Assembly: GCA_964461265.1 (NCBI GenBank) | Contig: CAYWTS010000001.1 | Coordinates: 2,199-66,198, forward strand | Source: an uncultured Ignavibacteriales bacterium | GTDB taxonomy: Bacteria; Bacteroidota; Ignavibacteria; Tepidaquicellales; OLB5 | DNA: 64,000 bases | Reading direction: 5' to 3' | Shown: in pieces, positions 2,400-64,000 of the stretch | Layout: each line of letters opens with the position of its first letter | Position numbering within the stretch: the first letter of the stretch is position 1 | Made by a program: the position numbers and the translations under genes | Notes under the pieces: model-generated | The model's database searches: none | What the model was told of the DNA's origin: nothing | The model's input: the letters and a program-made list of their open reading frames with translations, nothing else

Positions 2400-2471
<72 letters not shown>

Positions 2472-4114: not shown

Positions 4115-4139
4115 AAGTATCTGTTATTAATAAATAATG

Positions 4140-7516: not shown

Positions 7517-7524
7517 GTTAGTTT

Positions 7525-9303: not shown

Positions 9304-9323
9304 CTATCAAACTATTAAATTTA

Positions 9324-28542: not shown

Positions 28543-28616
<74 letters not shown>

Positions 28617-28672
28617 CGTCGAAAAAAATAAATATCATTATAATTAAAAAAACTGCAATAATAACAGGCGGA

Positions 28673-43429: not shown

Positions 43430-43474
43430 AAAAACTACAATAGTCTTGAGACTAAAGTAGTTTTACTATTTAAG

Positions 43475-49649: not shown

Positions 49650-49676
49650 AATCATAAAAAGTTAAATCAGGTTATA

Positions 49677-50654
49677 ATGTCAAAAGTTATCGCATTTATT
49701 GAATCAAGAGATAATAAAATTAAAAATGCTGGTTTTGAAACAGCTTATACGGCAAGCCGTATTGCAGGCGAACTTGGTGCTGAATCGGATGCTGTACTAA
49801 TTGGCAGCAATGTATCGGCTCTTGGCAGCGAACTCGCACCGTTTGGTATAAGTAAAGTATTTACTGCGGAAGATGAAAAGCTTGGTAAATATTCGACTAC
49901 AGCATACTCACAAATCGTAGCGGAAACCGCGAAGCAAGCCGGTGCTGATATAATTTTAATTTCTGCAACCTCTATGGGCAAAGACCTTGCACCTCGTGTT
50001 GCAGCCAAGCTTGAAGCAGGACTCGCAACCGATTGTACTGCTCTAAAAGTTGAGAATGGTGAAATAATAGCTACAAGACCAGTTTATGCTGGAAAAGCAT
50101 TTATTGATTTGAAAGTAAAATCACAAGTTAAGATGTATTCTTTAAGACCGAATGTTTTTAAGGCTGAAAAGGCGGATGATAAAAATGTAACCGTTGAAAA
50201 ACTTAATATAACTTTAGATACCACCAGTTTTCAGTCATCTGTTAAAGAAGTTATGGTCAGCACCGAAAAGCTTGATGTAGCAGAAGCAACAATAATAGTT
50301 TCAGGCGGCAGGGGAATGAAAGGTCCTGAGCATTTTAACTTAATCGAAGATCTTGCTAAAGTTCTGGGAGCTGCTACAGGTGCTTCGCGTGCAGTTGTTG
50401 ACGCAGACTGGAGACCGCACTCTGAACAGGTTGGTCAGACAGGAAAGACCGTTTCACCAAATCTTTATATTGCATGTGGAATAAGCGGAGCTATACAACA
50501 TTTAGCCGGAATGTCATCATCTAAATGTATTGTTGCAATTAATAAAGATAAAGATGCTCCGATTTTCTCGGTTGCAGACTACGGTATAGTAGGAGATGTT
50601 TTTGAGGTACTGCCTGTGCTTACGGAGGAATTTAAAAAGGTCCTTTCGAATTAA
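49677..50654 (+). CDS. etfA: Electron transfer flavoprotein, alpha subunit
   Basis: IVSGGRGM, SRAVVDADWRPHSEQVGQTGKTVSPNLYIACGISGAIQHLAGM and VAINKDKDAPIF. Confidence 0.9.
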   Translation: MSKVIAFIESRDNKIKNAGFETAYTASRIAGELGAESDAVLIGSNVSALGSELAPFGISKVFTAEDEKLGKYSTTAYSQIVAETAKQAGADIILISATSMGKDLAPRVAAKLEAGLATDCTALKVENGEIIATRPVYAGKAFIDLKVKSQVKMYSLRPNVFKAEKADDKNVTVEKLNITLDTTSFQSSVKEVMVSTEKLDVAEATIIVSGGRGMKGPEHFNLIEDLAKVLGAATGASRAVVDADWRPHSEQVGQTGKTVSPNLYIACGISGAIQHLAGMSSSKCIVAINKDKDAPIFSVADYGIVGDVFEVLPVLTEEFKKVLSN

Positions 50655-50678
50655 TATATTTTAGAGTAATTTATTCAC

Positions 50679-51287
50679 ATGAGCAGTGATAAAATACAGG
50701 TCGATATAATGGGTTTATCGCCAACACCTGCACCGGGCGGAGGCGGTTATGCCCTTATTTTGCGTGAATTAAGCGGGGAAAGGAGACTTCCTATTATTAT
50801 CGGAAGTTTTGAAGCACAGCATATAGCTCTTGAGCTTGAAGGTATCAAACCTCCGAGACCACTTACTCACGACTTGCTTAAAAGCGTTATTGAATCGCTT
50901 GGTTTTTCAATATCATACGTATTTATTAATGAGTTGAGAGACGGTACATTTTTTGCAAAGATAAAAGTTGATGTAGGCAGTATTGAAGAAATTGATGCCA
51001 GACCCTCAGATGCTATTGCACTTGCCTTAAAATTTCAGGTGCCTATTTATGTGGCTGAGGAAGTCATGAACGAAGTAAGTTTTATACCTGAAGAAGCAGA
51101 AGAAGAAGCGGAGGAAAAACCAAAAGAAGAAAAATCTGAAGCTGAACTTCCCATAGAACCTAAAGACCCTTATACTAAGAAAATGAATAGTCTCCAGCTG
51201 GAACTTAAAGAAGCTGTATCAAGGGAAGATTATGAAAAAGCTGCTATAATACGGGACGAAATAAAAAAACTGGAATTAAGCAGATAA
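50679..51287 (+). CDS. Bifunctional nuclease (DUF151/BFN) domain protein with a C-terminal UVR motif
   Basis: RLPIIIGSFEAQHIALELEG..PRPLTHDL and ARPSDAIALALKFQVPIYVAEEVM form the BFN domain. An acidic linker follows, then EDYEKAAIIRDEIKKLE (UvrB/C-type UVR). Confidence 0.75.
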   Translation: MSSDKIQVDIMGLSPTPAPGGGGYALILRELSGERRLPIIIGSFEAQHIALELEGIKPPRPLTHDLLKSVIESLGFSISYVFINELRDGTFFAKIKVDVGSIEEIDARPSDAIALALKFQVPIYVAEEVMNEVSFIPEEAEEEAEEKPKEEKSEAELPIEPKDPYTKKMNSLQLELKEAVSREDYEKAAIIRDEIKKLELSR

Positions 51288-51333
51288 AATTTAAATCACT
51301 GAGATCTGGAATTTTAAACAATTTTAAAATTAT

Positions 51334-51357
51334 CCCCGATAGCTTCGGGGTTTTTTA
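51334..51357 (+). terminator. Intrinsic terminator
   Basis: CCCCGA tagct TCGGGG followed by TTTTTT (51351-51356). It lies only a few nt before the coaX start. Confidence 0.7.
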
Positions 51358-51363
51358 TTTAAG

Positions 51364-52116
51364 ATGATACTCACTATTGATATTGGTAATACCTACACAA
51401 AATTAAGAGGCTATAAAGGTAATATAACAGTATATCAGAAAGACTGCATAACTGATGCAGATACTTTAAAACTTATGACTCGTGTAAAATCTCTAAGAAA
51501 CATGCATGTTAATATCTGCGGTATTGCTTCAGTTGTTCCCGCAGTTACGAAAAAATGGAAAAAGATTACTAGTTTGTGGTTTAAAATTAATCCAATAATT
51601 ATAAGTAATAAAATCAGGTTACCGATAAAACTCAAAGTTAAAAATCCTGATACTCTCGGCGCTGATAGGATATGTAATGCTGTTGCCGGATACTTGATGT
51701 TTAAAGGGAAAGAAAATGTAATAGTAGCTGATTTAGGTTCGGCAAATACTTTTGATGTGGTTCTTAAAAACGGGGATTACACAGGGGGTATAATAACTCC
51801 GGGTTTGGATTTACTGGCAGATTCATTATACCGAAAAACAGCTCAACTGCCAAAAATTACCGTTTTAAATAAACCAAAATCTCTAATAGGAAACCGGACT
51901 CCGATTGCAATAAAGTCGGGTGTATATTTTACATTTTTTGAATCAGTTAACGGTATAATTAAACGCATAATAAAGCATTATAAAAAAGACTTTAAGATAA
52001 TTCTTACCGGCGGCAAGGCTGATATTATAAAAGATGAAATTAATGCAGATACTGTTTTTATACCTGCTATGGTTAACAAAGGAATCCTGCAAATTTTTAG
52101 ATACAATGGCTATTAA
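51364..52116 (+). CDS. coaX: Type III pantothenate kinase
   Basis: MILTIDIGNT, LGADRICNAVAG, VADLGSANTFD and ITPG. Confidence 0.88.
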   Translation: MILTIDIGNTYTKLRGYKGNITVYQKDCITDADTLKLMTRVKSLRNMHVNICGIASVVPAVTKKWKKITSLWFKINPIIISNKIRLPIKLKVKNPDTLGADRICNAVAGYLMFKGKENVIVADLGSANTFDVVLKNGDYTGGIITPGLDLLADSLYRKTAQLPKITVLNKPKSLIGNRTPIAIKSGVYFTFFESVNGIIKRIIKHYKKDFKIILTGGKADIIKDEINADTVFIPAMVNKGILQIFRYNGY

Positions 52117-52987
52117 CAGATTTTTCAAAAGTAATAAGATAAAAGAACATTTGGTTTTTCAACAGAATGGTAATATCTGGAGATTTTACTTACATGGAAA
52201 TTTTCTTGTGGGAGAAACGAGGGAGCATAAAACAAGAAACGCTTATTTGTTTTCAATGGATTTTGTAAAAGAGGAAATATTTTTAAAGAACTTTCAAATT
52301 GAGGAAAAATGGTGGTTTTCTATTTCAGGTATTACCGGAGATATAATTTGCATCAGTAAATTCAGAAAACCTGATTTACCGGAACAACAAGGTATAATTG
52401 TATTAGACATAAAATCGGGTAAAAAACTCTGGGAGAATACTATGTTGACACTTTTATTTTCAAATGCAACCGATACATATGCTTATAAAAAGTTGTTCGA
52501 ATCCAAAATTTATTACAGGCTTGATACTTCAAACGGAAATATTATTAGTGAAACGAAAGCGGAAGATGAGGTTGCACATATTTACAGTTTAAAGGAACAA
52601 TTTGAAACTATAAATTACAAAACTTACAGTTATACCGAAAGATATTTACCCGGGATCACACATGCCGGCGATGAAGTAGATTTATATTTTGGTGATTATC
52701 TGAAAGATGTAAAATTAACAGGTCCAATTGAATTTATTATAAAAAATAATTTACTTATTTATAACTATCATAAAGAAATTGGAGCTAATTTAAAAACACT
52801 AAATGAAAATCTTACGGACAACATTTTCAATATTTATGACTTAAAAAAAGGAAAATTACTTTACTCAACAATATTAAACAAAAACACTGCTGGTTATGCA
52901 CCTGATAGTTTTTTTATAAATAATAATTACTTATTTTTTATTAGAAACAAAAAGGAACTTATAATAATAAATTTAGAACAGTGGTAA
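52106..52987 (+). CDS. Hypothetical protein
   Basis: The probable start is ATG at 52106 (MAINRFFKSNKIKEH..); the track start at 52034 lies inside coaX. It is a soluble protein of about 293 aa rich in beta-strand-like segments. No confident family call. Confidence 0.45.
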   Translation: MAINRFFKSNKIKEHLVFQQNGNIWRFYLHGNFLVGETREHKTRNAYLFSMDFVKEEIFLKNFQIEEKWWFSISGITGDIICISKFRKPDLPEQQGIIVLDIKSGKKLWENTMLTLLFSNATDTYAYKKLFESKIYYRLDTSNGNIISETKAEDEVAHIYSLKEQFETINYKTYSYTERYLPGITHAGDEVDLYFGDYLKDVKLTGPIEFIIKNNLLIYNYHKEIGANLKTLNENLTDNIFNIYDLKKGKLLYSTILNKNTAGYAPDSFFINNNYLFFIRNKKELIIINLEQW

Positions 52988-53400
52988 TAAAAACTGATAC
53001 TTTAACAATTAACACAAAGGGAAACTGCGACGTTATTGACCTGACCCCGCATATCACGGGTATGCTCGAAAAGTTAAGATTGAATAATGGTAATGTAACG
53101 GTGTTTGTAACAGGTTCCACAGCTTCGATAAGTACGATAGAATACGAGCCGGGTTTAAAGAAAGACCTCCCCGAGATACTTGAGACACTTATACCTGCGA
53201 AGAGAAGATATTTTCATCACGATACCTGGGGTGATTACAACGGACATGCCCACATCCGTTCAACTTTAATTGGCTGCTCACAGACCATTCCCTTTGTAAA
53301 AGGCAACTTAATGCTTGGTACGTGGCAGCAGGTAATACTGATTGATTTTGATGACAGACCAAGAACAAGAAGAGTTACCATCCAGTATATTGGTGAATGA
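52981..53400 (+). CDS. yjbQ: YjbQ/UPF0047-family protein (secondary thiamine-phosphate synthase-like)
   Basis: GTG start. VTGSTASISTIEYEPGL, HHDTWGDYNGHAHIRSTLIG, and GTWQQVILIDFDDRPRTRRV. Confidence 0.85.
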   Translation: MVIKTDTLTINTKGNCDVIDLTPHITGMLEKLRLNNGNVTVFVTGSTASISTIEYEPGLKKDLPEILETLIPAKRRYFHHDTWGDYNGHAHIRSTLIGCSQTIPFVKGNLMLGTWQQVILIDFDDRPRTRRVTIQYIGE

Positions 53401-54860
53401 GCAGGAACGAAAAATTAATATTTTTTACTCTTATATTATTCACGTTATCTGTTCGTATTGCACTGATAGAACAAAAAAACCTTTGGTTCGATGAGATTTA
53501 TTCCTGGCATATCACACAGGGTTCAATTTCCGAAATAGTTAAGGATACATCCGCCGATATTCACCCGCCGTTTTACTATTTTGTTTTAAAAATATGGAAT
53601 ATGGTATTTGGAGATTCTGTCTTTTCAATGCGTATATTATCTGTATGTTTTTCGGTTATATCTGTAATTGTATTATTTTTTTTATGCCTTAAAATTACCT
53701 CGATTCGGAATGCATTTATTATCATGTTTTTATTTGCAATCTCACCATTAAACTTATTTTACTCACAGGAAGTGAGAATGGCTTCCTTAAACCTGTTATT
53801 GAACATTCTTGCAGTCTATTCTGTAATAAGAATCAAAGACGCATCCTTAACAAAAAACATCATAAAAGAAAAATTTACATATCTGTTTATTGTAAGCAGT
53901 GTTTTAGCTTGTTACACACATTATTTCTCAATCCCGATTCTGGCTGCTAATTCTGTTTGGCTTTTATTTTCACTATATAAAAACATAAAAGCTGTTATAA
54001 TTATAATTGTTAGTGATGTATTGATAATTTTTGCGTTCCTTCCATGGTTCCCTATTATGTTATCACAAGCTTCAAGAGGGCAGCAGTGGAGAGTTGAACA
54101 GGATATATATTTGATTGTAAAGGAAGTATTGAATTTTGTCCGGGATGCAGCTATGGGTTTATATTATTCGAGTACACCATCCTGGATTTTATGGATTATA
54201 ACAATATTGTTATTACTGATGATTTCTGTTTCATTTTTTATAACAATCAGAAATTTTAAACTGCTTGGAAATAATTACAGTTTAATATTACTGGTTTTTG
54301 GTCTTACTTTACTAACAGCAGTGCTGGTTGCTTCAAAACAGAGAATAGAATTTTTCAGATATCTGAGCATTCTTGTACCTTATATTGTGATTATTTTGGT
54401 TTTAGCATTTAGTAGCATTAAAAGAGATAAGCTCTTGATATTTACAATAATTATATTCAGTTTAATTAACTTATACGGTATTTATAAATATTTTAAAGCT
54501 GACTATAAGAATAATGATTACAGGGGAATACTTACCGAGATAAATATTAACATTGCAGAAGGTGAAAAAATATTTACCGAACCCCATTATTGCGGATGGA
54601 TTGTGGATTATTATTCCAAAAAAGGTTTTGAAAATGTACCCGGAACGATAAACTACGGATGGGGCATTAATATGATGGTGGATACCATTACTTTTAAACA
54701 GCCTAAAAGATTTTTTCTTGTTGTGGATTACTGTACGTTAGACACAACAGGATATAAAAAAGCAATCAATCAACTTACAAATAACTATAAGCTGGTTTAT
54801 TTAAAACGGTTCAATATCATACCCCGTGAAGTAGACCTTTACAGATTTGTGAAGTATTAA
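53397..54860 (+). CDS. Polytopic membrane glycosyltransferase (GT39/ArnT-PMT-like, GT-C fold)
   Basis: 487 aa with about 11 hydrophobic helices. N-terminal LWFDEIYSWHI...DIHPPFYYFVLK is typical of ArnT/PMT-like GT-C enzymes. It ends in a soluble C-terminal domain. Confidence 0.6.
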   Translation: MSRNEKLIFFTLILFTLSVRIALIEQKNLWFDEIYSWHITQGSISEIVKDTSADIHPPFYYFVLKIWNMVFGDSVFSMRILSVCFSVISVIVLFFLCLKITSIRNAFIIMFLFAISPLNLFYSQEVRMASLNLLLNILAVYSVIRIKDASLTKNIIKEKFTYLFIVSSVLACYTHYFSIPILAANSVWLLFSLYKNIKAVIIIIVSDVLIIFAFLPWFPIMLSQASRGQQWRVEQDIYLIVKEVLNFVRDAAMGLYYSSTPSWILWIITILLLLMISVSFFITIRNFKLLGNNYSLILLVFGLTLLTAVLVASKQRIEFFRYLSILVPYIVIILVLAFSSIKRDKLLIFTIIIFSLINLYGIYKYFKADYKNNDYRGILTEININIAEGEKIFTEPHYCGWIVDYYSKKGFENVPGTINYGWGINMMVDTITFKQPKRFFLVVDYCTLDTTGYKKAINQLTNNYKLVYLKRFNIIPREVDLYRFVKY

Positions 54861-54991: not shown

Positions 54992-57900
54992 CTATAAAAC
55001 CAGAACTTTTTCTTCATGTTTTTTCAATTTACTCATATCAATTTCTGTTAACCCACCGTTCATACTTCCATTATTACCATTCTTATAACCATTGAGCTTT
55101 TGCAGATTAGACATTAATTCAAATTGTTTTCTTATTTTTTCTTCAAACTCTTTAAGTTTCTCATCAATTGTAAGCACTTTCTTTTTCTTTGCTATCATAT
55201 CTTCACGGTAACGTTTCAGGAAGTAATGTATAGTTTCGATTCTGATTTTGATAGAACCTGCAGGTTTGTTTTCGTCAATATCCTTAAAAGAAAAATATGG
55301 AGTTCCGCAGCTTGTTATAATTTCTTCGATAACTGTATAAATCGGAGCGTCATGCCCGCATTTGAATGATGAAAGCTCGAGTGCAACTAGGTTTGGATGT
55401 CTTGCTGTGAATTTTGCTGCCCAGATTTTACGACTGGTGTTCTCACTGTATGAATTTTTCCATACATCGCTTATATCCATCGGTGCTTTAATAATGCCAG
55501 CTCTTACTTCATCACCGAATAACTTTTCCAATATATCTTTGTCGGTTGGTAATGAATCCTGGTTAAGTACCGGGTAACCGAGTTTCTGGAATTCTTCAAG
55601 AATTTCATGGTTTAAACCGGGGTCGTTATGGTATGGTCTGGCTAATACAACAATTCCAATCTTATCTTCGCGTTCCATTATTTCAATAGCATCGCGTGCT
55701 TTACGTTTCATTTCAGTATTAAATTTATCCAGTGCTCTGTAGGCTTCTTCAACTGCTAGGTCGTTTTCTTCTTTAGATAACCCAAATTTATCGGACCATT
55801 CGCTGAACATTTGTTTGGCACAAAGTTTTGGTTCAGTCAAACGTAAATATGTATTTACATATATTATATTATTTTCTCTGAAAAGGTCGCTTTCTTTTGT
55901 AAATGCTGCCTTTATCGATTCGGATGTTGCCGTAACTGTTGGACATGCATGATGTGCCTGTGCAAAAGTTAATTCCGAAGGCATAGTATCAACAATAGGG
56001 AGGAAGATATAATCCAGTTTTTTCTTCCTGTGAATTTTATAGACAAGATTATGAATATGAGGTATCCCTACTTTTGAAGGGAAACAAGGGTCAATAGCAC
56101 CGCGTTTTGCACCTTCTTTATACAACTCTTCGCTTGTGTATTCTGAATAAACAATGTTTCCAGGTTTAATACCAAGCGATTCGAAATATGCGGTAAAAAA
56201 CGGTGTATGTTGGTACATATTCAGTACTCGCGGAATGCCAATAACAATTTTTTCTCGCATTTTAGCAAGTTTGATAAATTTGTTGAATTTTTCACCGGCT
56301 TTTTTATCAATTTTAAATTTAATTATTTGAGTTTTCGTGGGTTTAGGTATTTTATCTCTTACAATTCGAGGCTGCTGAGATTTAAAAACTTCTATTGCTG
56401 CCCATTCTACAAGGTTAGGTGTAGCTTCTTTGATTGCATCAAGCCCTTTTTTGATTTGTTTCATCGAGTTAAGGTCTTCAACGGTACCTTTTTCACACGT
56501 TGCAATAATCAGCCTTTGAGTTCCTACTGACATCGGAACCTTAGATTCAGGGTTGGCTACTGACTCTTTAGGAATCTTTAAATCAGGATTTTCAATAAAA
56601 TTTTGTGCTTGTTTATCGGTAGCTACATCAATAAACGTCCTCAAGCACTTATTTTTACAGAAATAACACCTTGTAGACTCATTTCTCGTGGTTTTGTATA
56701 TTATTTTTTCCACCAGGTCTAATCCAATAAAATCGGTTCTCTTGCCATTATCATACAGCCTGGCAGCCTCAATAGCGCATCCAATAGCTCCTGCCTCTCC
56801 TGTGTGCTTGTGGACGTATATATTAGGTTCTACACCACTATCTTTGAATCTATCTGCAATAAAATCTACCTGTGATTTAACAGCAGCCAGGTTATATTGT
56901 GTTCCGCCCTGAAGTACAAAATTTTTACCAAGTTTAGCTAAATTTGGTATTTGTGATACATAAAGCCATATATTCTTAGGCAGTACATTGGCTAATCCAG
57001 CCATGATTTCTTCAGGTTTCCAGCCCTGACGCTGAAAATCAACGATATCTGATTGCATAAAAACGGCGCAGCCATATCCGAACGTGGGATATTGTTTGGC
57101 TGAAAAGGCAATATCTGCAAAATCTTCTACTGCATAGCCAAATCCCTGTGCAGTAGATTGCAAAAAATAACCATTCCCGGCTGAGCACTGAGTATTCAAT
57201 TTGAAATCTTTAACTCTTCCTTTATCAAGTATTATTAACTTAATGTCTTGACCTCCAACATCAACTATTACGTCAGTTTGCGGATAAAAGTGAAGTGCTG
57301 CTTGAGTATGTGCTACGGTTTCTACCAAAGCAACATCTGCGTGAAGAACATCTTTCAGAATATCTTTAGCATAACCTGTGGTACCAATACCTAAGATTTC
57401 GAGTCTTGCGCCTTGTTCCTCTACTTGTTTGCGGATTTTTTGGAGTATTTCGACAGTATCTTCAATAGGATTCCCTTTTGAAAGCTGGTATGCTTTAACC
57501 AGAACCTCTTTATTTTCAGATAATAAAGCAGCTTTAGTTGAGGTTGAACCTCCATCAATACCTATAAATCCGCAGACTACGGAATTTACATCAAATCTAG
57601 CCGGTTTAAATGTACTAATGGTATATTTGTTTTTAAATATGTTCAGTTCTTCCTCAGTTTTGTATAATCCCCCCGATCCGGAAAGGGATAAAAGCTTCTT
57701 TTTTTCTTCATCACGGCCATAATTAATGTAATATTCCAGTTCTTTATAACCTTTATAGATACCAATGTTAAGTTCTTCATCTTTTCCATATTCTACTGCA
57801 CCAATCGCTGCAAAATATTGTGCATTTTCTGGAACAAGTATTAATTGTTCAATCGGTTCCGATTTATCATACTGCACATTTCTTTCTTCCCACATTTTTG

Positions 57901-58639
57901 GAATATTTTGACGCCAGCACTCCTGAATGCCCTTAATATAAGTATTAGGACCGCCGAGCAGGAGCACCTGTGGTCTTAGTGTATGACCCCTTGTAAGCAC
58001 TGAAAGGTTCTGTTGAATAATCGATTCGAAAAGGCTTGCCATAAGCTCATCAGCTGGCACACCCGATTTTTGCAATCCGTTAATATCGGTTTCAGCAAAT
58101 ACACCACACTTACCTGCAACAGGGTGGAGTTTTAATCCTACATAACCCATGTTGCACAATTCGGATGCTGGAATTTTAAGCTTTGCATTAATTTTATCTA
58201 TTACTGCACCCGTACCGCCAGCACATTTATCATTCATTGATGGAATTTTCTTTTTCTTTCCGGATTCAGGGTCTTCCTTGAAGACAATGATTTTTGCATC
58301 CTGTCCGCCTAGCTCAATTACCGATAAACACTTTGGGTAGAATTTTTCGACTGCAAGCGATACAGCATTTACTTCTTGTACGAATTTGGCACCCACAAAA
58401 CGTCCTATGTTCGTGCCTCCTGAACCAGTAATAAAAACACGTGCATCGTTAATTGAGTCTTTGCTTAAACTTGACTCAATATTCTTAAGCAGTTCGAGGA
58501 TTTTTTCAGGTTGTTTGGTTTCATGCCGCTGGTAATCGGACCAGAGAATTTTATCCTCATCGATATTGATAACTACAGCTTTTACTGTAGTTGAACCGAT
58601 ATCGATACCTATGTAGAGCGGTGATTTTAGAATTGACAT
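54992..58639 (-). CDS. Fused double BcrAD/BadFG (HgdC-type) ATPase 'activase' with a C-terminal DUF2229-like region
   Basis: 1215 aa. Module 1 is LYIGIDIGSTTVKAV .. KCAGGTGAVIDK .. GKCGVFAETD. Module 2 is FIGIDGGSTSTKAAL .. TQCSAGNGYFLQ .. YGCAVFMQSD. A CYFCKNKC linker follows, and the C-terminal region contains SSFKCGHDAPIY. Confidence 0.8.
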   Translation of the reverse strand: MSILKSPLYIGIDIGSTTVKAVVINIDEDKILWSDYQRHETKQPEKILELLKNIESSLSKDSINDARVFITGSGGTNIGRFVGAKFVQEVNAVSLAVEKFYPKCLSVIELGGQDAKIIVFKEDPESGKKKKIPSMNDKCAGGTGAVIDKINAKLKIPASELCNMGYVGLKLHPVAGKCGVFAETDINGLQKSGVPADELMASLFESIIQQNLSVLTRGHTLRPQVLLLGGPNTYIKGIQECWRQNIPKMWEERNVQYDKSEPIEQLILVPENAQYFAAIGAVEYGKDEELNIGIYKGYKELEYYINYGRDEEKKKLLSLSGSGGLYKTEEELNIFKNKYTISTFKPARFDVNSVVCGFIGIDGGSTSTKAALLSENKEVLVKAYQLSKGNPIEDTVEILQKIRKQVEEQGARLEILGIGTTGYAKDILKDVLHADVALVETVAHTQAALHFYPQTDVIVDVGGQDIKLIILDKGRVKDFKLNTQCSAGNGYFLQSTAQGFGYAVEDFADIAFSAKQYPTFGYGCAVFMQSDIVDFQRQGWKPEEIMAGLANVLPKNIWLYVSQIPNLAKLGKNFVLQGGTQYNLAAVKSQVDFIADRFKDSGVEPNIYVHKHTGEAGAIGCAIEAARLYDNGKRTDFIGLDLVEKIIYKTTRNESTRCYFCKNKCLRTFIDVATDKQAQNFIENPDLKIPKESVANPESKVPMSVGTQRLIIATCEKGTVEDLNSMKQIKKGLDAIKEATPNLVEWAAIEVFKSQQPRIVRDKIPKPTKTQIIKFKIDKKAGEKFNKFIKLAKMREKIVIGIPRVLNMYQHTPFFTAYFESLGIKPGNIVYSEYTSEELYKEGAKRGAIDPCFPSKVGIPHIHNLVYKIHRKKKLDYIFLPIVDTMPSELTFAQAHHACPTVTATSESIKAAFTKESDLFRENNIIYVNTYLRLTEPKLCAKQMFSEWSDKFGLSKEENDLAVEEAYRALDKFNTEMKRKARDAIEIMEREDKIGIVVLARPYHNDPGLNHEILEEFQKLGYPVLNQDSLPTDKDILEKLFGDEVRAGIIKAPMDISDVWKNSYSENTSRKIWAAKFTARHPNLVALELSSFKCGHDAPIYTVIEEIITSCGTPYFSFKDIDENKPAGSIKIRIETIHYFLKRYREDMIAKKKKVLTIDEKLKEFEEKIRKQFELMSNLQKLNGYKNGNNGSMNGGLTEIDMSKLKKHEEKVLVL

Positions 58640-58681
58640 ATGATTTACAACAATTTATTACTTAATTAATGAATGATAATC

Positions 58682-60496
58682 TTAAACTGCTGATTCTTTT
58701 TTCCGGGTATTTGCGATAGGTCTGATTCCTTCATCTTTCATTCTATCAGCAACATGCATAATGAAATTTGCTGCAACACTTACTACACCTTTTGTATGCG
58801 GAATTTGGTAAAAAGGCTTTCTTAGCTCATCATGCGATTCAATATAAGTTTTAATTTCTTCCAGTGTGTAACCCGTATTTTCAAGACATTCTCTGAATTC
58901 GCTTTTTGCTTTAGACTTTGCTTCACCCAGTGCCATTTGAACACGAGAATAAGCATTAATGTCACCTTCACCCGAGGTTTCGACAGGAAGATAAATCATA
59001 TCTTTATATTGTGATGTAACCACAGACTGAACGCCATCCGATTGTGTTGAAGGCATACATCCAAACGGTTTTAACGAAAGAACCATATGGCATAAGGCTT
59101 TATTTGAATAATAAATGTTTTTAGCTACTTCAAGATGACCTTCGCCTCCTTCTACACGGGAATTATAGAAAGGATGCCCGACTCTCTGCAACTCGAGCTG
59201 GTTCACTAATGCGTGAGGTAAGTTTTTGAATACTTTACGTATTCTGTTATATTCTCTCTCGAATACACGCTCAGCAATGGATATAACCAAAATAGTTTTT
59301 TTATAATCTGTGTAATTTTTAAATTTTTTAAAAATCTGGTATCGTTTCGGGTTAGGTTCATTTTCTTTGATACCTTTCCTGTCACTGTACATATTCTTTG
59401 CCTGGTGAAGCATATATAAAATCCAGGTTGCAATAGGTTCAACAAGAACCTGGGCACCTTCTCTTTCGAGGAATGGGAACATGTTGAAATTACCGTCGCC
59501 TTCGGTTGTCTGCGCCCAGAATTCGCCTGTAACTTTTACAATCGGCTTAATGCGGGTTCTATCGATTTTTATTTCATTAAATTTATTTTTTATTTCCTTA
59601 ATAGTTTCTATATAAAAATCACTCATTAACTGGTCAACAAACCGCTGGATGTAATTTGAGGCAGGCAATTTCCTTAATAATGCACCAATTTTAGTATTAA
59701 ATTGGAAATATCTTTTTTGTTTCATACGTTCATACATAATATCCATACATTCTTTAAGAACTTTATCAGTCTCACCTGGATTTTTTTCATAAGGCCTTAT
59801 TTGGTAAGCTACATCATTAATAATGTCACCAATATTCATTGCATTCAATATGCCAAGGAAAAAATCGAGGTTCATTTCAAGACCTGCTTCAACTTCTTCC
59901 TGTTCGAGCCCGCCTGTTTGCTGGAATATCAGTATTCTGAAACCATCGTATCCTGAATTACGAAGAGCAAGCCTGTATTCAGCTTCATACATTCCAAAGC
60001 GGCAGGGTCCGCAAGCCCCTGCTGTGAAGAATACATATTTATCGATTATCTCTTGTTTTGTCAGACCCTGTGCTTCCAAACCCTGTAAATACTGTATAAG
60101 ATTTCCGACTGTAAAATAGGTTGGGTTACACTGTCCGTTATTGCCGTATTCACGTCCAAGCTGGAAAGCTTTTTTATCGGGTGTTGGGATTTCTGATACT
60201 TTATAACCTAAACCTTCAAGCACACCGCGTATAAGCTTTTCATGTTTCCATGTTAGTCCGCCGAAAAGGATTGTAGTAGTATCCCTCTGGCTTTTTGTAA
60301 AAGCACTTTCAAGCGGTTTTTTGAAATGGTCGATGGGTTTAGAGTCAATTCCATATTCTTTCTCAAGTCTTATTTTTTCTTCAAGAATAAGACGCTGGAT
60401 TTCAGATTCATGAGCGATATTATTTAGAGAACTGTTTTGAGGGAACTGTATAGTGATTGGTTTTCCGCTTACGGCGGTTTGATGTGTAGTTTCCAT
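58682..60496 (-). CDS. DUF2229-type (acyl-CoA dehydratase activase-related) protein, unknown substrate
   Basis: 604 aa. FTAGACGPCRFGMYEAEYRLALRNSGYDGFRILIF and SLKPFGCMPSTQSDG are the motifs I associate with the 'CoA enzyme activase uncharacterised domain' family. Confidence 0.65.
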   Translation of the reverse strand: METTHQTAVSGKPITIQFPQNSSLNNIAHESEIQRLILEEKIRLEKEYGIDSKPIDHFKKPLESAFTKSQRDTTTILFGGLTWKHEKLIRGVLEGLGYKVSEIPTPDKKAFQLGREYGNNGQCNPTYFTVGNLIQYLQGLEAQGLTKQEIIDKYVFFTAGACGPCRFGMYEAEYRLALRNSGYDGFRILIFQQTGGLEQEEVEAGLEMNLDFFLGILNAMNIGDIINDVAYQIRPYEKNPGETDKVLKECMDIMYERMKQKRYFQFNTKIGALLRKLPASNYIQRFVDQLMSDFYIETIKEIKNKFNEIKIDRTRIKPIVKVTGEFWAQTTEGDGNFNMFPFLEREGAQVLVEPIATWILYMLHQAKNMYSDRKGIKENEPNPKRYQIFKKFKNYTDYKKTILVISIAERVFEREYNRIRKVFKNLPHALVNQLELQRVGHPFYNSRVEGGEGHLEVAKNIYYSNKALCHMVLSLKPFGCMPSTQSDGVQSVVTSQYKDMIYLPVETSGEGDINAYSRVQMALGEAKSKAKSEFRECLENTGYTLEEIKTYIESHDELRKPFYQIPHTKGVVSVAANFIMHVADRMKDEGIRPIANTRKKESAV

Positions 60497-60538
60497 AATT
60501 CCTTCCTTTAGTTATGGTTTAAACTTTATTAAAGAATT

Positions 60539-61888
60539 CTATTTTACTATTTTTTTTAATATTTCATTAACACATATTTTGCTGCTTTTCACAGCACTCT
60601 CAATTGTAGCAGGAAGCCCGGTATCCGTCCAGTCTCCTGCTATGTAAAAGTTACTTAATTTAGTTATTTGTCCCGGTCTTGAATTAAGTGAATCATTATC
60701 CGGTATAAACGTAGCCCGCTTTTCCTTTAATACTCTTGCAGATTTTATTTTTACATTCATCAAAGCCGGATAACAATGAAACAATTCGCGTTTTGTAAAC
60801 TGAATTATATCTTCCTTGTTAAATTTTGCGACTTCACCTGCTCTGCTGATAACCAGACATAAATGGTCATTTTTTATCCTGAATATCCATTGTATTGTTG
60901 AATCCAATACACCTGTAAAATTATTTTTAATAATGTTATCAATCTCTGATTCGAATTTAAAATAAATATTGACTATTTCCGAATTTTTTAATTCATCAAC
61001 AAATTTAAATGAAGAATCATAAATATTTTCTCCTATTAAGCTTTTAAATTCCCAAAAGGGGACTGCTGAAATAAAATAATCAGTATTAATAAATGAGCTA
61101 TCCTGTAATTCAGCTGATTCAACTTTATCATTTTTAATGTGAAGTTTTTTAACTCTGGTATTAAGCTTTATTTCTGTTCCTTTAAGATTTAAATATTCAG
61201 TTGCTGGTTCTATGTATAATCTGCCTAAAGTTGATAAGGGCAAAACAAGTCTTGAATTTCCTCTTTTTAAAAGTCCGGTTTTGAGCAAATTAACAAACAA
61301 TTTTGCGGATGTTTCATGTGACTTTGCATTAAACACAGCAATTATTAACGGATTCCAGAAAAAATGAATTATCCCCGTAGTTTGACCCGATAATTTTAAA
61401 TATTCTTCGGCAGTCAAATTAACTAAACTTTCATTAAATTTGTTTAACCCAATTGCTGTAATTAATCTAAAGATTGATAGTTTATCGTTAAAGCTTAATG
61501 CATTATATCTCAGTATCCCGAAAAACAGATTTAATAATGGAAATAGTGCTGTACATTTAAAATAAGCACAGCTGGAATCTTGTTTTATAAAACGAACCGA
61601 AAGTTGTTTTTGAAAATACAGCTTATTAGAGCTGCCGATAATTTCAAGGAACTCGAATGTATTTTTATACCATCCTGCTAGAATATGCTGTCCATTATCT
61701 ACGGTATCTTCTAAAATATCATCAAAATAACTATATGCCCTGCCCCCGAGTTTACCGGAGGCTTCTATTAATATAACTTTAAAATTTTTACGAGCTAAAA
61801 ATACCGCTGCCGATAAACCCGCTGCTCCGCCTCCGATAATAGTTACACTGGGATGTGATAATTTTTTATCCATTTTATCTGTAAGCAA
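60539..61888 (-). CDS. hpnE: Hydroxysqualene dehydroxylase (FAD-dependent amine-oxidase fold)
   Basis: FAD-binding N-terminus VTIIGGGAAGLSAAVFLARKNFKVILIEASGKLGGRAYS, then DNGQHIL and C-terminal FYIAGDWTDTGLPATIESAVKSS. It sits after hpnC and hpnD. Confidence 0.8.
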   Translation of the reverse strand: MLTDKMDKKLSHPSVTIIGGGAAGLSAAVFLARKNFKVILIEASGKLGGRAYSYFDDILEDTVDNGQHILAGWYKNTFEFLEIIGSSNKLYFQKQLSVRFIKQDSSCAYFKCTALFPLLNLFFGILRYNALSFNDKLSIFRLITAIGLNKFNESLVNLTAEEYLKLSGQTTGIIHFFWNPLIIAVFNAKSHETSAKLFVNLLKTGLLKRGNSRLVLPLSTLGRLYIEPATEYLNLKGTEIKLNTRVKKLHIKNDKVESAELQDSSFINTDYFISAVPFWEFKSLIGENIYDSSFKFVDELKNSEIVNIYFKFESEIDNIIKNNFTGVLDSTIQWIFRIKNDHLCLVISRAGEVAKFNKEDIIQFTKRELFHCYPALMNVKIKSARVLKEKRATFIPDNDSLNSRPGQITKLSNFYIAGDWTDTGLPATIESAVKSSKICVNEILKKIVK

Positions 61889-62726
61889 GCCGATATTTTA
61901 AAAATACACCAACTGTATAAAAAAGCTTCTTGATACCCGATACTTTAATCTTTTTTCTGAAAACATTATAATTCATTCGTTCAATCTTTTTAAGTATATC
62001 GAAATAAACTTTTTGCATAATACGAGCTGGGAAAAGTAATCTTCTGTCAACTTCTGTAAAGCAATTATTCGCTTTTTCAAAATATTCACGTGCTCTTTTA
62101 CATTCAAATTCCATTAATTCAACGAATGAATGGTTATACCTGGAATTATTCAGGTCGTCTTCTGAGTAACCGAATTTTTTTAAGTCCTCTTCCGGGATAT
62201 ATATTCTGCCGTTATAAGCGTCGTATTGGATATCCCTGAGTATATTGGTTAGCTGCAGTGCTATTCCGAGGTTAACAGCATATTCTCTTGCACAAGTTGT
62301 CTTATTTCCGAAAATTTCTATTGATATTAAACCTACAGTAGCCGCTACACGGTAACAATACTGATATAGTGTTTCAAAGTCTTTATATCTTGATGTTTGC
62401 AGGTCCTGTTCAACACCTTTTATAAGTTCAAAAAAAGGTTCTACAGGTATATTAAATTTTTTAATTATATGATTCAAATAGTTTAACAGGGGGTAGGAGG
62501 ATTTACCCTGCAACGCTTTTTCGAATTCTTTTCTCCACTCCCTTAGCTTTTTAAATTTTATCTCCTTAGAATCGGTATCGTTATCGGCAATATCATCGGT
62601 TGTTCTGCAAAATGCATATAGGGCATTCATTGCGTCACTTTTTTCTTTTGAAAGCAAACGAACCGAATAAATAAAATTGGATTTACTGCGTTCAGTAATT
62701 TCAATATGTTCCCTGGTACCAGTCAA
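61875..62726 (-). CDS. hpnD: Presqualene diphosphate synthase (squalene/phytoene synthase family)
   Basis: SNFIYSVRLLSKEKSDAMNALYAFCRTTDDIADN (first Asp-rich motif), LQLTNILRDIQYDAYNGRIYIP (second motif), and paralogy plus order relative to hpnC. Confidence 0.8.
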   Translation of the reverse strand: MTGTREHIEITERSKSNFIYSVRLLSKEKSDAMNALYAFCRTTDDIADNDTDSKEIKFKKLREWRKEFEKALQGKSSYPLLNYLNHIIKKFNIPVEPFFELIKGVEQDLQTSRYKDFETLYQYCYRVAATVGLISIEIFGNKTTCAREYAVNLGIALQLTNILRDIQYDAYNGRIYIPEEDLKKFGYSEDDLNNSRYNHSFVELMEFECKRAREYFEKANNCFTEVDRRLLFPARIMQKVYFDILKKIERMNYNVFRKKIKVSGIKKLFYTVGVFLKYRLAYR

Positions 62727-63589
62727 ACAGTTTGAAAAAATAATTTAATAAAATCAGTTTTCTTTAACTTTAGTCTTTTCCCGAATATATTATAATTAAC
62801 AGTCTTTATTTTTTTTAATATTTCTCTGCCGCCGAGCCATGTAAGACGCAATTCATGGTAAAGACGCTTTGATGAGCCATAATCTTTAATAATACCTATT
62901 AGCTCCTTGCCTTCGTCAAATAATTTATATGTTCTGGCAACTTCAAATTTCATTAACTCAATAAAACAATTATCATATTCACGGGCAAGTAATTTCTGCT
63001 CATTATAGCCAAATCTTAACATATCATCTTCAGGCAAGTAAATTCTGTCTTTTTCTAAATCAATTGCTACATCCTGCAAGAAATTTGTAAGCTGAAGTGC
63101 TGTGCATATTTTATCAGACAATTTAAACCATTCTTCATTCTTTTCACCGAAAATCATCAGCACCAGACGTCCTACCGGGTTAGCAGAGTATTGACAGTAC
63201 CCAAGCACCTCATCGAATGATTTATACCTGTGTACCGTAACATCTTCTTTGAATGCTTTTAAAAGATTACGAAGCGGTTCTACAGGTAAATTACAATCTT
63301 TTAAAGTTTTGTTTAATGCAATAAATATCGGGTCGTATGTTTTATCATTTAAACAGTCATCAAGTTTTTTTTCCCACTCATCTAATAAAGCTAATCTTTT
63401 ATAAATACCGCCTTCGATACCGGGTTCATCAGCGAAATCATCTGCTGCACGTGCAAAAGCATATATTGCGTGTATATATTTGCGTTTCTCATGCGGGATA
63501 AAAAATGATGCAACAGGAAAATTTTCATAATGTTTACGTGTAATTTCTTCACAATATTTGAAAGAGCTATTTATGAGATTATTGTTCAT
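62723..63589 (-). CDS. hpnC: Hydroxysqualene synthase (squalene/phytoene synthase family)
   Basis: HYENFPVASFFIPHEKRKYIHAIYAFARAADDFADE and LQLTNFLQDVAIDLEKDRIYLP. The ENFPVAS N-terminal motif distinguishes HpnC from HpnD. Confidence 0.8.
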   Translation of the reverse strand: MNNNLINSSFKYCEEITRKHYENFPVASFFIPHEKRKYIHAIYAFARAADDFADEPGIEGGIYKRLALLDEWEKKLDDCLNDKTYDPIFIALNKTLKDCNLPVEPLRNLLKAFKEDVTVHRYKSFDEVLGYCQYSANPVGRLVLMIFGEKNEEWFKLSDKICTALQLTNFLQDVAIDLEKDRIYLPEDDMLRFGYNEQKLLAREYDNCFIELMKFEVARTYKLFDEGKELIGIIKDYGSSKRLYHELRLTWLGGREILKKIKTVNYNIFGKRLKLKKTDFIKLFFQTV

Positions 63590-64000
63590 TTATCAGCAAA
63601 AATGAAACATCTTCAGATAAACACAAAGTCAAAAAATCAAACAATCATAATAGCAGGTTAAAGCCTGAAATAGGCCATTTTACCTTATTAGTTAAAAAAA
63701 TGTTAATTAAATAAGAAAAATGCAGGTTTTCAGATAAGTGTGCTTTGTTAGCATTAGCATATTATTATCTGAATCATTAGATAAATATTTTTGTTTTGCT
63801 CTGGTTGAACAGAGTATACTGTGAAGCTTCGATAATAGGGTATTAAAAGAAAAATTAAAGGATAATATAATAAGACATGTTAATATCAGTATTCCCGCGG
63901 TGGATCTTGAATTTGCGGGATCCGTCGGGTCAAAATAAAATGCGAGAAGCAAAGATGTGATTACTGTAAAAATTATCATCCATAGGTGAGTACGATAGCC

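Follow-up and report, generated by a model that had tools for sequence, protein, structure and literature searches.

The window (the whole stretch of 64,000 nucleotides that was analysed) contains a block of five co-oriented, tightly packed minus-strand ORFs, the coordinates of which were exactly as first noted in a sequence-only reading of this DNA (Table 1). With longest-ORF starts, overlaps of 4 nt (62723-62726) and 14 nt (61875-61888) and two gaps of 42 nt were reproduced. In the JGI gene calls, HpnD and HpnE have 260 aa and 444 aa, and the overlaps become gaps of 65 nt and 1 nt. The tight packing holds under both sets of starts, the start codons themselves being uncertain; because the TIGR03465 model aligns from residue 11 of HpnD, the longer HpnD ORF is favoured. 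It had been stated that neither gap contains a stem-loop followed by a T-run, and our scan likewise returned no terminator-like site in either gap, with little power because over 10 kb it gave 6 such sites versus 6.2 expected by chance. Upstream of hpnC, a single sigma-70-like match (TTAACA-18-TAAAAT, 10/12) was observed at 63706-63677; this candidate promoter is weak, since promoter-like matches were not enriched over shuffles. The 3' end of hpnE also contained promoter-like hexamers, as often as expected by chance. A further conserved gene on this strand, the sixth, is a small membrane ORF located upstream of hpnC and truncated by the end of the window. Members of its family were found in the same orientation upstream of hpnC at 14 Ignavibacteria loci; judged by their sequences and hydropathy, these relatives (~112 aa) have a conserved MEFYRK start, a PTDPANS motif and a single TM-like segment. 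Searches of Pfam and NCBIfam with this ORF gave no match.

Table 1. Features of the squalene gene block and of the adjoining two-gene reductase module
Feature	Coordinates	Strand	Evidence or remark
Small conserved membrane ORF, 3' part	63707..64000	(-)	upstream of hpnC; 5' end outside window
Intergenic region upstream of hpnC, 117 nt	63590..63706	(-)	candidate promoter region of block
hpnC, squalene synthase HpnC, 288 aa	62723..63589	(-)	TIGR03464 equivalog 303 bits (cutoff 250); PF00494 SQS_PSY
hpnD, presqualene diphosphate synthase HpnD, 283 aa (TTG start; JGI 260 aa)	61875..62726	(-)	TIGR03465 equivalog
hpnE, hydroxysqualene dehydroxylase HpnE, 449 aa (TTG start; JGI 444 aa)	60539..61888	(-)	TIGR03467; PF01593 Amino_oxidase
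Spacer hpnE / 604-aa gene, 42 nt	60497..60538	(-)	AAGGAAGGA ribosome-binding-like motif 5 nt before ATG; terminator-like site absent
Predicted Fe-S 'Red2' subunit, 604 aa, PlsR-equivalent second reductase/dehydratase-type module	58682..60496	(-)	predicted fold, profile alignment, fusions
Spacer 604-aa / 1215-aa genes, 42 nt	58640..58681	(-)	terminator-like site absent in scan
1215-aa Act1-Act2-linker-Red1 protein, 'BBD' core of PlsA/Ger-type enzymes	54992..58639	(-)	PF01869 x2 + PF09989
Act1, first HgdC/HadI-type ATPase module, aa 1-330	57650..58639	(-)	phmmer vs 4eht_A/1hux_A, E 5e-18
Act2, second HgdC/HadI-type ATPase module, aa 359-623	56771..57565	(-)	PF01869 best stretch; phmmer vs 1hux_A, E 2e-23
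Linker with CX2CX3C...C motif (Cys658, 661, 665, 715)	56495..56668	(-)	probable additional [4Fe-4S] site
DUF2229 / Red1 domain, aa 800-1030	55550..56242	(-)	PF09989, E 1.7e-51

The earlier naming of the first three genes was confirmed, as all three products passed NCBIfam equivalog cutoffs, HpnD with 288 bits (cutoff 279) and HpnE with 344 bits (cutoff 283). Together, HpnC, HpnD and HpnE make squalene from farnesyl diphosphate. In agreement with the earlier reading, no squalene-hopene cyclase was found among the cyclase-sized ORFs of the window.

In the 1215-aa protein, two BcrAD_BadFG ATPase modules are followed by a Cys-rich linker and then by DUF2229. The paired cysteines that had been pointed out in both ATPase modules were found: Cys139 and Cys178 of Act1 align with the MNDKC and SSTC motifs of HadI, and Cys485 and Cys524 of Act2 are both aligned in the phmmer match to 1hux_A. 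All four align with cluster-ligating cysteines of HadI/HgdC and were 100% conserved in 58 relatives. Alignment to the sequences of the HadI/HgdC structures identifies the ATPase part as an electron-injecting module of the HgdC type with a bridging cluster, in keeping with the earlier assignment to ATP-driven electron injectors; its two halves would be expected to make up a pseudo-dimer with a [4Fe-4S] cluster as the bridge. The linker cysteines were 100% conserved in 58 family members and also occurred in the Listeria and Brevibacillus enzymes described below; they probably provide an additional [4Fe-4S] site. Three further conserved cysteines, Cys852, Cys899 and Cys1094, lie in the Red1 module, the last of them just past the Pfam match.

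DUF2229 had previously been attributed to the 604-aa protein, an attribution that was rejected. The domain (PF09989) sits in the 1215-aa protein instead, Pfam and NCBIfam searches with the 604-aa protein gave no match even at E ≤ 10, and its hhalign comparison with the DUF2229 half of the 1215-aa protein was insignificant. A PDB sequence search also gave no match. When the AF2 model of the 604-aa protein (pLDDT 70.8) was compared with the PDB by Foldseek, the top 11 matches were all catalytic subunits (DCCP, BzdNO, HadBC and MbdON). The GACGPCRFGMYEAEY and KPFGCMP motifs noted earlier were present and near-invariant in the family, in which Cys123, Cys165 and Cys480 are invariant and Cys162 is near-invariant. 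In the fused PlsA/R-type enzyme of Listeria, the family profile aligned to the C-terminal module, residues 983-1403 (prob 99.6%, E 4e-24); three of the four conserved cysteines are common to both, whereas Cys162 is absent from Listeria. In one relative, the 604-aa module occurs as a fusion with an NAD(P)H/FAD/Fe-S oxidoreductase. Its predicted fold and profile alignment identify the 604-aa protein as the second reductase-type subunit that had been missing.

The large fused family had been described as having no assigned substrate, which is out of date. Its PlsA/PlsR/Ger members, the anaerobic plasmalogen synthase (PlsA/PlsR) and the glycerol ester reductase (Ger), reduce sn-1 esters of glycerolipids to vinyl or alkyl ethers. 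PlsA/PlsR was described as Act1-Act2-Red1-Red2 (PMC12838417), the BBD architecture as common to all Ger/PlsA producers of alkyl ethers (PMC13159169), and Listeria was reported to have active plsA/plsR orthologs (PMC9702350). The sole BBD gene in one complete L. monocytogenes chromosome encodes a fused protein of 1475 aa. It is the nearest enzyme with literature support, at just 30% identity for the BBD part (across 87% of the 1215-aa length) and 23% for Red2; all 11 conserved cysteines of the 1215-aa family are common to it. Natural fusions were found in both orders, Red2-B-B-D (P0153) and B-B-D-Red2 (P0179). Architecture, cofactor cysteines and profile alignment thus place the pair in the PlsA/PlsR/Ger family, and because of the Listeria C-terminal alignment and the fusions in both orders, the two proteins are, as judged by homology, one enzyme, a split and gene-order-reversed family member. 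According to the literature, PlsA and Ger are indistinguishable by sequence, so that substrate assignment by homology in this superfamily is weak.

It was observed that hpnCDE lies directly upstream of the pair in 14/14 distinct Ignavibacteria lineages having the pair; the coupling thus extends beyond this genome. The 604-aa and 1215-aa genes were adjacent on one strand in 9/9 Ignavibacteria loci. The block persisted in lineages with different flanks and HpnE identities down to 42%, and in some lineages unrelated genes were inserted inside it. In one lineage (L098/L099), a fused enzyme of 1421 aa from the same class takes the place of the pair behind hpnCDE. Its identity to the pair is 19-26%, it aligns collinearly with the Listeria enzyme (E 8e-99), and its flanks are syntenic, SecA being 74% identical. 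Because this distant enzyme has the same slot, some functional coupling with squalene synthesis is still conceivable. Because other Ignavibacteria have a stand-alone fused PlsA/Ger-type gene (5/5), the hpnCDE-linked split pair could be a specialised paralog.

The pair was present in at least 10 other phyla, which overlap with those reported to carry 'Ger homologues' (PMC11868695). At 71 loci surveyed there, the two genes were adjacent and co-oriented in 67, with identities of 52-68% (604-aa) and mostly 56-76% (1215-aa) to those studied here. The linkage with hpnCDE, conserved throughout the Ignavibacteria lineages, was absent from all 71: none had HpnC, HpnD or HpnE within 10 kb, and no lipid-gene context was seen. 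A census of 142 flanking genes revealed neither isoprenoid genes nor an enriched partner family. Radical SAM and glyoxalase neighbours recurred at the Acidobacteriota loci. Outside Ignavibacteria the pair is thus a self-contained module independent of squalene genes. For the split-pair clade as a whole, squalene synthesis is the one conserved genomic association.

These patterns bear on the earlier proposal that squalene, hydroxysqualene or another isoprenoid is the substrate of the pair; for all lineages outside Ignavibacteria, they match in essence the pattern that had been named beforehand as speaking against it. In its wider form, the pair might reduce or dehydrate presqualene diphosphate, hydroxysqualene, squalene or one of their derivatives, or make an isoprenoid-containing ether lipid, in each case from substrate provided by hpnCDE. 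The invariable position behind hpnCDE in Ignavibacteria, a link that outlasts the swap to an enzyme version just 26% identical, speaks for it, and the stand-alone fused genes leave room for a specialised copy; the window also gave no squalene-hopene cyclase to account for the fate of the squalene. However, Brevibacillus and the 71 loci have the pair, at the latter without squalene or isoprenoid genes nearby, and its strong conservation between phyla points to a single common substrate. Known BCR, HAD and PlsA chemistry uses a carbonyl or ester group (ketyl-radical mechanisms), which squalene and hydroxysqualene lack, and the only reductive step needed is already done by HpnE. We therefore consider this proposal improbable. 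Even less credible, and hardly to be expected, is that the flavoenzyme HpnE receives low-potential electrons from the pair, as had also been suggested. The pair does lie directly downstream of hpnE, its ATPase modules are of the electron-injecting kind, and the oxidoreductase fusion places the 604-aa module in an electron-transfer chain; but with Red1 and Red2 it has its own catalytic-type subunits, as expected of a complete enzyme rather than a donor, hpnE is not nearby at the 71 loci, and HpnCDE functions in many bacteria without such a pair.

It might also be supposed that the pair is an ATP-driven reductase of another substrate, which could be an ester other than a glycerolipid, a CoA thioester or, as in DCCP, a small molecule; its place after the squalene genes would then be synteny inherited within a single class and devoid of functional meaning. 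The identity of merely 23-30% to PlsA-type enzymes, fold matches to DCCP, BCR and HAD enzymes of diverse substrates, the missing lipid-gene context elsewhere and the tolerance of inserted genes would fit this, and the Acidobacteriota neighbours hint at different chemistry. Nevertheless, the four-module architecture and complete Cys ligand set fit the PlsA/PlsR type rather than DCCP, HAD or BCR, synteny alone leaves the distant fused homolog in the same slot unexplained, and the block persists despite changed flanks and diverged HpnE. Such a substrate seems rather unlikely, less so than squalene chemistry.

On balance, we lean towards reading the block as a lineage-specific membrane-lipid operon for squalene and probable ether lipids rather than as novel squalene chemistry, because the pair belongs to an ether-lipid family. 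By analogy with that family, ATP hydrolysis in Act1/Act2 would deliver an electron of low potential to the Fe-S clusters of a Red1/Red2 heterodimer, where the acyl ester at the sn-1 position of a membrane glycerolipid would be reduced, and possibly dehydrated, to an alkenyl or alkyl ether. In Ignavibacteria, with this module placed directly behind hpnC-hpnD-hpnE, the genes may be co-transcribed as one membrane-lipid unit, probably preceded by the small membrane protein gene. Squalene and ether-linked lipids would then be made together, and both would tighten or stabilise the bilayer; apolar polyisoprenoids in the midplane alter the permeability and fluidity of ether-lipid bilayers (PMC8200183). 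No report of ether lipids in Ignavibacteria was found in the literature searched.

The experimentally characterised PlsA/Ger proteins are C. perfringens CPE1194/1195, T. maritima AGL49404 and D. alkenivorans SHJ90043; the comparison made here used the Listeria and Brevibacillus sequences. The Brevibacillus pair shows 46% (1215-aa) and 40% (604-aa) identity and has the plsA-to-plsR order. Compared with the fused enzyme of Listeria, the pair described here is split into two genes, with the Red2 gene first. In T. maritima Ger, PF06050 or PF09989 fragments were reported in the C-terminal part, whereas the 604-aa protein has neither. DCCP, HAD and BCR have separate small activators and PF06050 subunits; the pair instead represents the four-module PlsA/PlsR type.

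The five co-oriented minus-strand genes described by the sequence-only reading were recovered at identical coordinates, and with the longest-ORF starts the junctions were also the same (overlaps of 4 nt and 14 nt, then two 42-nt gaps). In JGI gene calls of identical contigs, later starts shortened HpnD to 260 aa and HpnE to 444 aa, which replaces the overlaps by gaps of 65 and 1 nt; the longer hpnD ORF is favoured as the probable one, because the HpnD model alignment begins at its residue 11. The names given to the first three products were confirmed by the curated NCBIfam equivalog cutoffs, which were exceeded by HpnC (303 vs 250 bits, TIGR03464), HpnD (288 vs 279 bits, TIGR03465) and HpnE (344 vs 283 bits, TIGR03467). 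These enzymes convert farnesyl diphosphate through presqualene diphosphate and hydroxysqualene to squalene, and the contiguous, co-oriented hpnC-hpnD-hpnE genes, whose order was kept in 14 related lineages, constitute a predicted squalene-synthesis set. As had been noted, no squalene-hopene cyclase was found among the cyclase-size ORFs of the 64-kb window, and nothing terminator-like was found in either 42-nt gap (6 sites seen in the scan, 6.2 expected by chance). Promoter matches were also at chance level, with Bacteroidota-type promoters outside the coverage of the scan, so that these scans neither proved nor disproved the operon status.

Table. Positions of the genes discussed, in the window and in homologous loci (L-numbers)
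Feature	Locus	Coordinates	Strand	Remarks
hpnC ORF	window	62723-63589	-	288 aa
hpnD ORF	window	61875-62726	-	283 aa, longest-ORF start
hpnE ORF	window	60539-61888	-	449 aa, longest-ORF start
604-aa gene	window	58682-60496	-	604 aa
1215-aa gene	window	54992-58639	-	1215 aa
Small membrane ORF 5' of hpnC	window	63707-64000	-	copy cut by window end
Small-ORF copy	L010	6010-6453
Small-ORF copy	L004	6352-6768
Small-ORF copy	L099	3853-4287
Block insertion	L010	8306-8614
Block insertion	L100	12098-12809
Block insertion	L012	4564-7856
Block insertion	L015	9720-10937
Block insertion	L016	12064-13834
Block insertion	L018	6005-7996
Fused 1421-aa gene	L098	10410-14675
Fused 1421-aa gene	L099	7553-11818
Brevibacillus laterosporus pair	L092 (NZ_CP011076.1)	3155-13137		1168-aa BBD protein, then 545-aa Red2
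Radical SAM neighbour	L026	7540-8565
Radical SAM neighbour	L050	15742-16848
Radical SAM neighbour	L051	8683-9753
Radical SAM neighbour	L055	15789-16832
Radical SAM neighbour	L082	11497-12531
Radical SAM neighbour	L086	11850-13187
Radical SAM neighbour	L088	15614-16999
Glyoxalase/VOC insertion	L022	12679-13575
Glyoxalase/VOC insertion	L024	12072-12599
Glyoxalase/VOC insertion	L025	9162-9665
Glyoxalase/VOC insertion	L032	12794-13294
Glyoxalase/VOC insertion	L038	11928-12473
tmRNA gene	window	43474-43849	-	tag DNYNYALAA
tRNA-Val (TAC)	window	439-514
tRNA-Gly (CCC)	window	2399-2471
tRNA-Arg (CCT)	window	28543-28617
Por_Secre_tail gene	window	13516-15900	+	type IX secretion C-terminal sorting domain
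Por_Secre_tail gene	window	24420-26300	+	as above
Por_Secre_tail gene	window	26363-28255	+	as above
Convergent genes 3' of block	window	48903-54860	+	PMT_2 glycosyltransferase, YjbQ, DUF4905, type III pantothenate kinase, BFN/UVR, ETF alpha/beta

The 1215-aa protein carries two PF01869 (BcrAD_BadFG) ATPase modules, Act1 and Act2, followed by a PF09989 (DUF2229) module, Red1, at residues 800-1030 (E 1.7e-51); this architecture is abbreviated BBD. Cys139/178 and Cys485/524 of the tandem modules aligned with the cluster-ligating positions of HadI/HgdC, as the sequence-only reading had claimed for both modules, and were 100% conserved. The assignment of DUF2229 to the 604-aa protein (Red2) was misplaced, as this protein gave no PF09989 match, and indeed no Pfam or NCBIfam match with the threshold relaxed to E ≤ 10; nor did its sequence match any PDB entry. 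Paralogy of Red1 and Red2 was not demonstrable from sequence, because neither a BLASTP comparison of the 604-aa protein with the 1215-aa one nor hhalign of the 604-aa family profile against the DUF2229 half (prob 0.8%) gave a significant result.

The 604-aa family comprised 1932 representatives at 50% clustering, with 65-78% identity among its Ignavibacteria members; Cys123, Cys165 and Cys480 were invariant and Cys162 nearly so. For the AlphaFold2 model of the 604-aa protein (pLDDT 70.8, pTM 0.71), the top 11 PDB matches were all catalytic Fe-S subunits of the BCR/HAD/DCCP type (DCCP 6ENO/7YZM/7YYL, BzdNO, HadBC and MbdON), at low TM-scores of 0.28-0.40. Natural fusions were found in both orders: in P0153 the 604-like module precedes B-B-D, in P0179 it follows B-B-D, and in P0164 it follows D. 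On the basis of these fusions, the two window proteins are predicted to be subunits of one enzyme. In another homolog, P0158 (1271 aa), the 604-like module was fused to Fer4_20, Pyr_redox_2 and Fer4, i.e. to a GltD-like NAD(P)H/FAD/Fe-S oxidoreductase, which hints at the physiological electron source of the enzyme family.

It has been reported that the anaerobic plasmalogen synthase PlsA/PlsR is composed of Act1-Act2-Red1-Red2, split or fused (PMC12838417; PMC9702350), with active plsA/plsR orthologs in Listeria (PMC9702350), and that the glycerol ester reductase Ger has a conserved BBD core (2x PF01869 + PF09989) in all alkyl-ether producers (PMC13159169). According to the literature, PlsA and Ger are indistinguishable from sequence. 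The earlier premise that the large fused family has no assigned substrate is outdated. A complete L. monocytogenes chromosome from the plasmid collection was used as proxy for the characterised PlsA/PlsR and Ger sequences, and its sole BBD gene encodes a 1475-aa fused protein. The 1215-aa protein was 30% identical to this enzyme across 87% of its length, and all 11 conserved cysteines of its family were present there: two in Act1, two in Act2, the CX2CX3C...C site of the linker (Cys658/661/665/715) and three in Red1 (Cys852/899/1094). The 604-aa family profile aligned to Listeria residues 983-1403 (prob 99.6%, E 4e-24), where Cys123/165/480 coincided with Listeria cysteines, and also to residues 1015-1391 of an Ignavibacteria fused enzyme (prob 98.9%). 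A Brevibacillus homolog pair in plsA-to-plsR order showed 46% (BBD) and 40% (Red2) identity. At least three deep clades of PlsA/Ger-type enzymes were distinguished, with 25-30% identity between clades.

The BBD architecture, the Listeria alignments, the common cysteine set and the Brevibacillus pair together indicate that the window pair belongs to the PlsA/PlsR/Ger family in a split form with reversed gene order, as far as can be judged from sequence, with the Pfam-invisible 604-aa protein as its predicted second catalytic subunit. The suggestion that the pair supplies electrons to HpnE is very unlikely, because the pair contains two catalytic-type subunits of its own. Brevibacillus laterosporus was the source of the closest homolog pair found in a cultured organism; there the pair is directly preceded by genes resembling lanthipeptide dehydratases (Lant_dehydr_N/C) and by one for a PqqD/M50 protease, on a sequence labelled plasmid yet 1.38 Mb long.

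For the neighbourhood survey, one genome per GTDB species was scanned with the 604-aa family alignment. The best 80 loci of at least 600 matches came from 9 Ignavibacteria species and from 71 members of other lineages (Acidobacteriota, Dadabacteria, Neomarinimicrobiota, Eisenbacteria, Latescibacterota, Krumholzibacteriia, Planctomycetota, Myxococcota and Thermodesulfobacteriota), and were searched by tblastn with the five window proteins over a neighbour range of 10 kb. In 9/9 Ignavibacteria loci the 604-type and 1215-type genes were adjacent on the same strand and HpnC/D/E were within 10 kb. Elsewhere among the best 80, the two genes were adjacent on the same strand in 67 of 71 loci (gap <300 nt in 52), and HpnC/D/E were within 10 kb in none, at least 4 kb of upstream sequence being present in 59 of the 71. 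A metagenome scan seeded with HpnE alone gave only 4 distant loci, and a reverse survey was made through HpnE homologs and contig look-ups. By survey and look-ups, the split pair was found 3' of hpnCDE in 14 of the 14 distinct Ignavibacteria lineages seen; the flanks of these blocks differed, and HpnE identity was as low as 42%. The linkage noticed in the window was common to all 14 of these lineages and was seen at none of the 71 other loci. Co-location of P0499, P0107 and P0298, taken from equal-sized contigs (11,194 bp), was wrong when checked, so the coincidences P0363/P0395 and P0381/P0391 were not counted as evidence.

More than 600 genomic matches with 52-78% identity were distributed over at least 10 phyla, and this high conservation of the pair means either strong constraint or recent horizontal spread. 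Across phyla the identity was 52-78% for the 604-aa protein and mostly 56-87% for the 1215-aa protein; that of the adjacent HpnE was only 42-65% within Ignavibacteria. The proposal, made from the physical coupling, that the pair acts on squalene or hydroxysqualene appears improbable, since the pair is highly conserved and independent of hpnCDE in ten other phyla and since these hydrocarbons and alcohols offer no carbonyl or ester handle. ORF clustering, together with Pfam annotation of 142 genes that flank or separate the pair outside Ignavibacteria, revealed no enriched partner gene, the top families being Radical_SAM and Glyoxalase with 7 each, and no isoprenoid or phospholipid genes were among the 142.

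In seven Acidobacteriota loci a radical SAM gene adjoins the pair upstream, between or downstream; it could encode a lipid-modifying partner. Its identification as HpnH, Tes or Mss was rejected, the generic scores of about 40 bits being far below the cutoffs. In several Acidobacteriota a glyoxalase/VOC-family gene lies between the 604-type and 1215-type genes. Three loci (L067, L079 and L084) had a 604-type gene without a 1215-type partner within 10 kb despite room, and in L073 the nearest BBD gene was 4 kb away and only 34% identical.

In one Ignavibacteria lineage (loci L098 and L099), hpnC-hpnD-hpnE are followed by a single gene for a 1421-aa fused Act1-Act2-Red1-Red2 protein, which replaces the split pair. 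The flanks of these loci were syntenic with the lineage of L005 (SecA 74%, HpnC/D/E 51-60% and small ORFs 35-41% identity). Module by module, the fused enzyme shared only 26%, 19% and 22% identity with the split pair, and it was collinear with the Listeria enzyme (E 8e-99). This pattern is best read as a swap, in situ, of one version of the enzyme class for another, distant one. Such an exchange implies that the split and fused versions are functionally interchangeable and that selection keeps the class next to hpnCDE. Fused-type genes elsewhere in Ignavibacteria (L101-L105) stood alone at unrelated loci in 5/5 cases, showing that the fused type is not generally linked to hpnCDE.

We lean, with modest confidence, to reading the pair as a glycerolipid ester reductase of the ATP-driven Fe-S type (ether-lipid/plasmalogen synthase) that in Ignavibacteria is co-located, and probably co-transcribed, with hpnCDE. 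It is rather unlikely that the pair acts on another, non-glycerolipid substrate and that the hpnCDE linkage is inherited synteny. We give little credence to the idea that Ignavibacteria recruited this ATP-driven Fe-S reductase class into triterpenoid metabolism, as the split pair or the same-slot fused version, to act on a squalene-pathway intermediate or to couple an isoprenoid to glycerol and so to yield, oxygen-free, a new squalene-derived or isoprenoid ether lipid; if the enzyme did act on the squalene pathway, this would be new anaerobic isoprenoid chemistry. With a glycerolipid ester reductase, hpnCDE and the pair would form a membrane-lipid operon for squalene plus probable ether lipids. 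Apolar polyisoprenoids at the bilayer midplane are reported to change how permeable and fluid ether-lipid membranes are (PMC8200183), which may provide a physical rationale for such an operon.

At least 14 Ignavibacteria loci have a small same-strand ORF upstream of hpnC that is a candidate for a sixth block gene. Counted from its conserved MEFYRK start, the product is about 112 aa long; it contains one TM-like segment and a PTDPANS motif that looks invariant, and it gave no match in Pfam or NCBIfam. In five lineages the block is interrupted by same-strand secreted-protein genes or a PIN toxin. In some lineages genes with signal-peptide-like N-termini separate hpnE from the 604-type gene or the pair's two genes from each other; a PIN-domain gene with a 78-aa gene was seen between the pair's genes in some, and an extra 102-aa ORF between hpnD and hpnE in some. 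The three Por_Secre_tail genes of the window are consistent with an Ignavibacteria/FCB-group origin, and in related loci genes of this type are likewise found beside or within the block. The convergent genes 3' of the block showed synteny with the closest relatives only (L001, L010 and L097 compared); other Ignavibacteria lineages have a 141-aa gene and SecA on that side instead.

The kind of enzyme is already known. What is new is the recognition of a Pfam-invisible Red2 partner for 'BBD-only' genes, the reversed split architecture, and the class-wide joining of the pair to the squalene operon in Ignavibacteria, including the in-situ swap. In the literature searched, no paper linking PlsA/PlsR-type enzymes to hpnCDE was found, nor any co-mention of hpnC or hpnD with DUF2229, PF09989, plsA or Ger, or of hpnE with Ignavibacteria. 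The annotation of a widespread gene pair, now labelled 'activator of 2-hydroxyglutaryl-CoA dehydratase' and 'predicted nucleotide-binding protein', is corrected. Pfam-architecture surveys of ether-lipid potential score 'BBD-only' genes as being without a second reduction domain; if these genes belong to the pair's clade, their partner is probably encoded right next to them, which bears on the search for bacterial ether-lipid and brGDGT-type producers in Acidobacteriota and other phyla. The Ignavibacteria block offers a testable case in which squalene would be made in coordination with probable ether lipids, giving a bacterium a way to build a low-permeability membrane of archaeal-like character.

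Compared with the known HpnCDE pathway, the window genes pass all thresholds and have the canonical order, but the 64-kb window contains no shc or other hpn gene, and a PlsA/Ger-class enzyme lies 3' instead. Like HgdCAB, HadIBC, BzdNOPQ/MbdONPQ and DCCP/DCCP-R, the pair would inject electrons at the expense of ATP through paired ATPase modules bridged by a cluster, and its 604-aa model has the fold of their catalytic subunits at the low TM-scores mentioned. Those 2-hydroxyacyl-CoA dehydratase, class I benzoyl-CoA reductase and DCCP systems use a separate stand-alone activator of ~260 aa, whereas the pair has tandem ATPases fused to Red1 and no PF06050 (HGD-D) match. Its assignment to any of them was rejected, the similarity being at fold level only, and there was no evidence for a CoA-ester substrate.

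Ger (T. maritima Tmari_0479/AGL49404; D. alkenivorans SHJ90043), compared by description only, has the same BBD core, and its reported phyla (Marinisomatota, Myxococcota, Desulfobacterota, Planctomycetota, Bacteroidota and acidobacterial MAGs) overlap those of the pair. It is described as one polypeptide chain in which BBD is followed by short PF06050/PF09989 fragments (BBDHDDH in T. maritima), whereas the corresponding module of the pair is a separate upstream gene. Such fragments were absent from the 604-aa protein at E ≤ 10 and from the C-terminal module of P0179 at E ≤ 0.01. 'BBD-only' Ger homologs of sponge-symbiont MAGs ('ger architecture 2'), in which the second reduction domain is treated as absent, agree with the pair in 2x PF01869 + PF09989 and in phyla (Acidobacteriota, Latescibacterota, Proteobacteria); however, in the survey almost every BBD gene of the pair's clade was directly preceded by a Red2 gene that escapes Pfam.

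From PlsA/PlsR (C. perfringens CPE1194/1195; fused in Enterococcus, Listeria, Lactococcus and Bifidobacterium) the pair differs in its reversed order with Red2 first, in its low identity to the Listeria enzyme (only about 30% for BBD and 23% for Red2), in its total length (~1820 aa vs ~1400-1475), and in a larger Red2 (604 aa vs the ~420-490-aa C-terminal region of the Listeria enzyme) that is unrecognised by any Pfam model and has the extra conserved Cys162. Its four modules are those of PlsA/PlsR, namely a tandem of HgdC-type ATPase domains, the DUF2229 reductase domain and another module of reductase type; the conserved cysteines of Act1, Act2, the linker and Red1 and three of Red2 are common to the pair and the Listeria enzyme; both belong to the BCR/HAD superfamily, the pair by its predicted 604-aa fold; and one-gene and two-gene forms occur in both.
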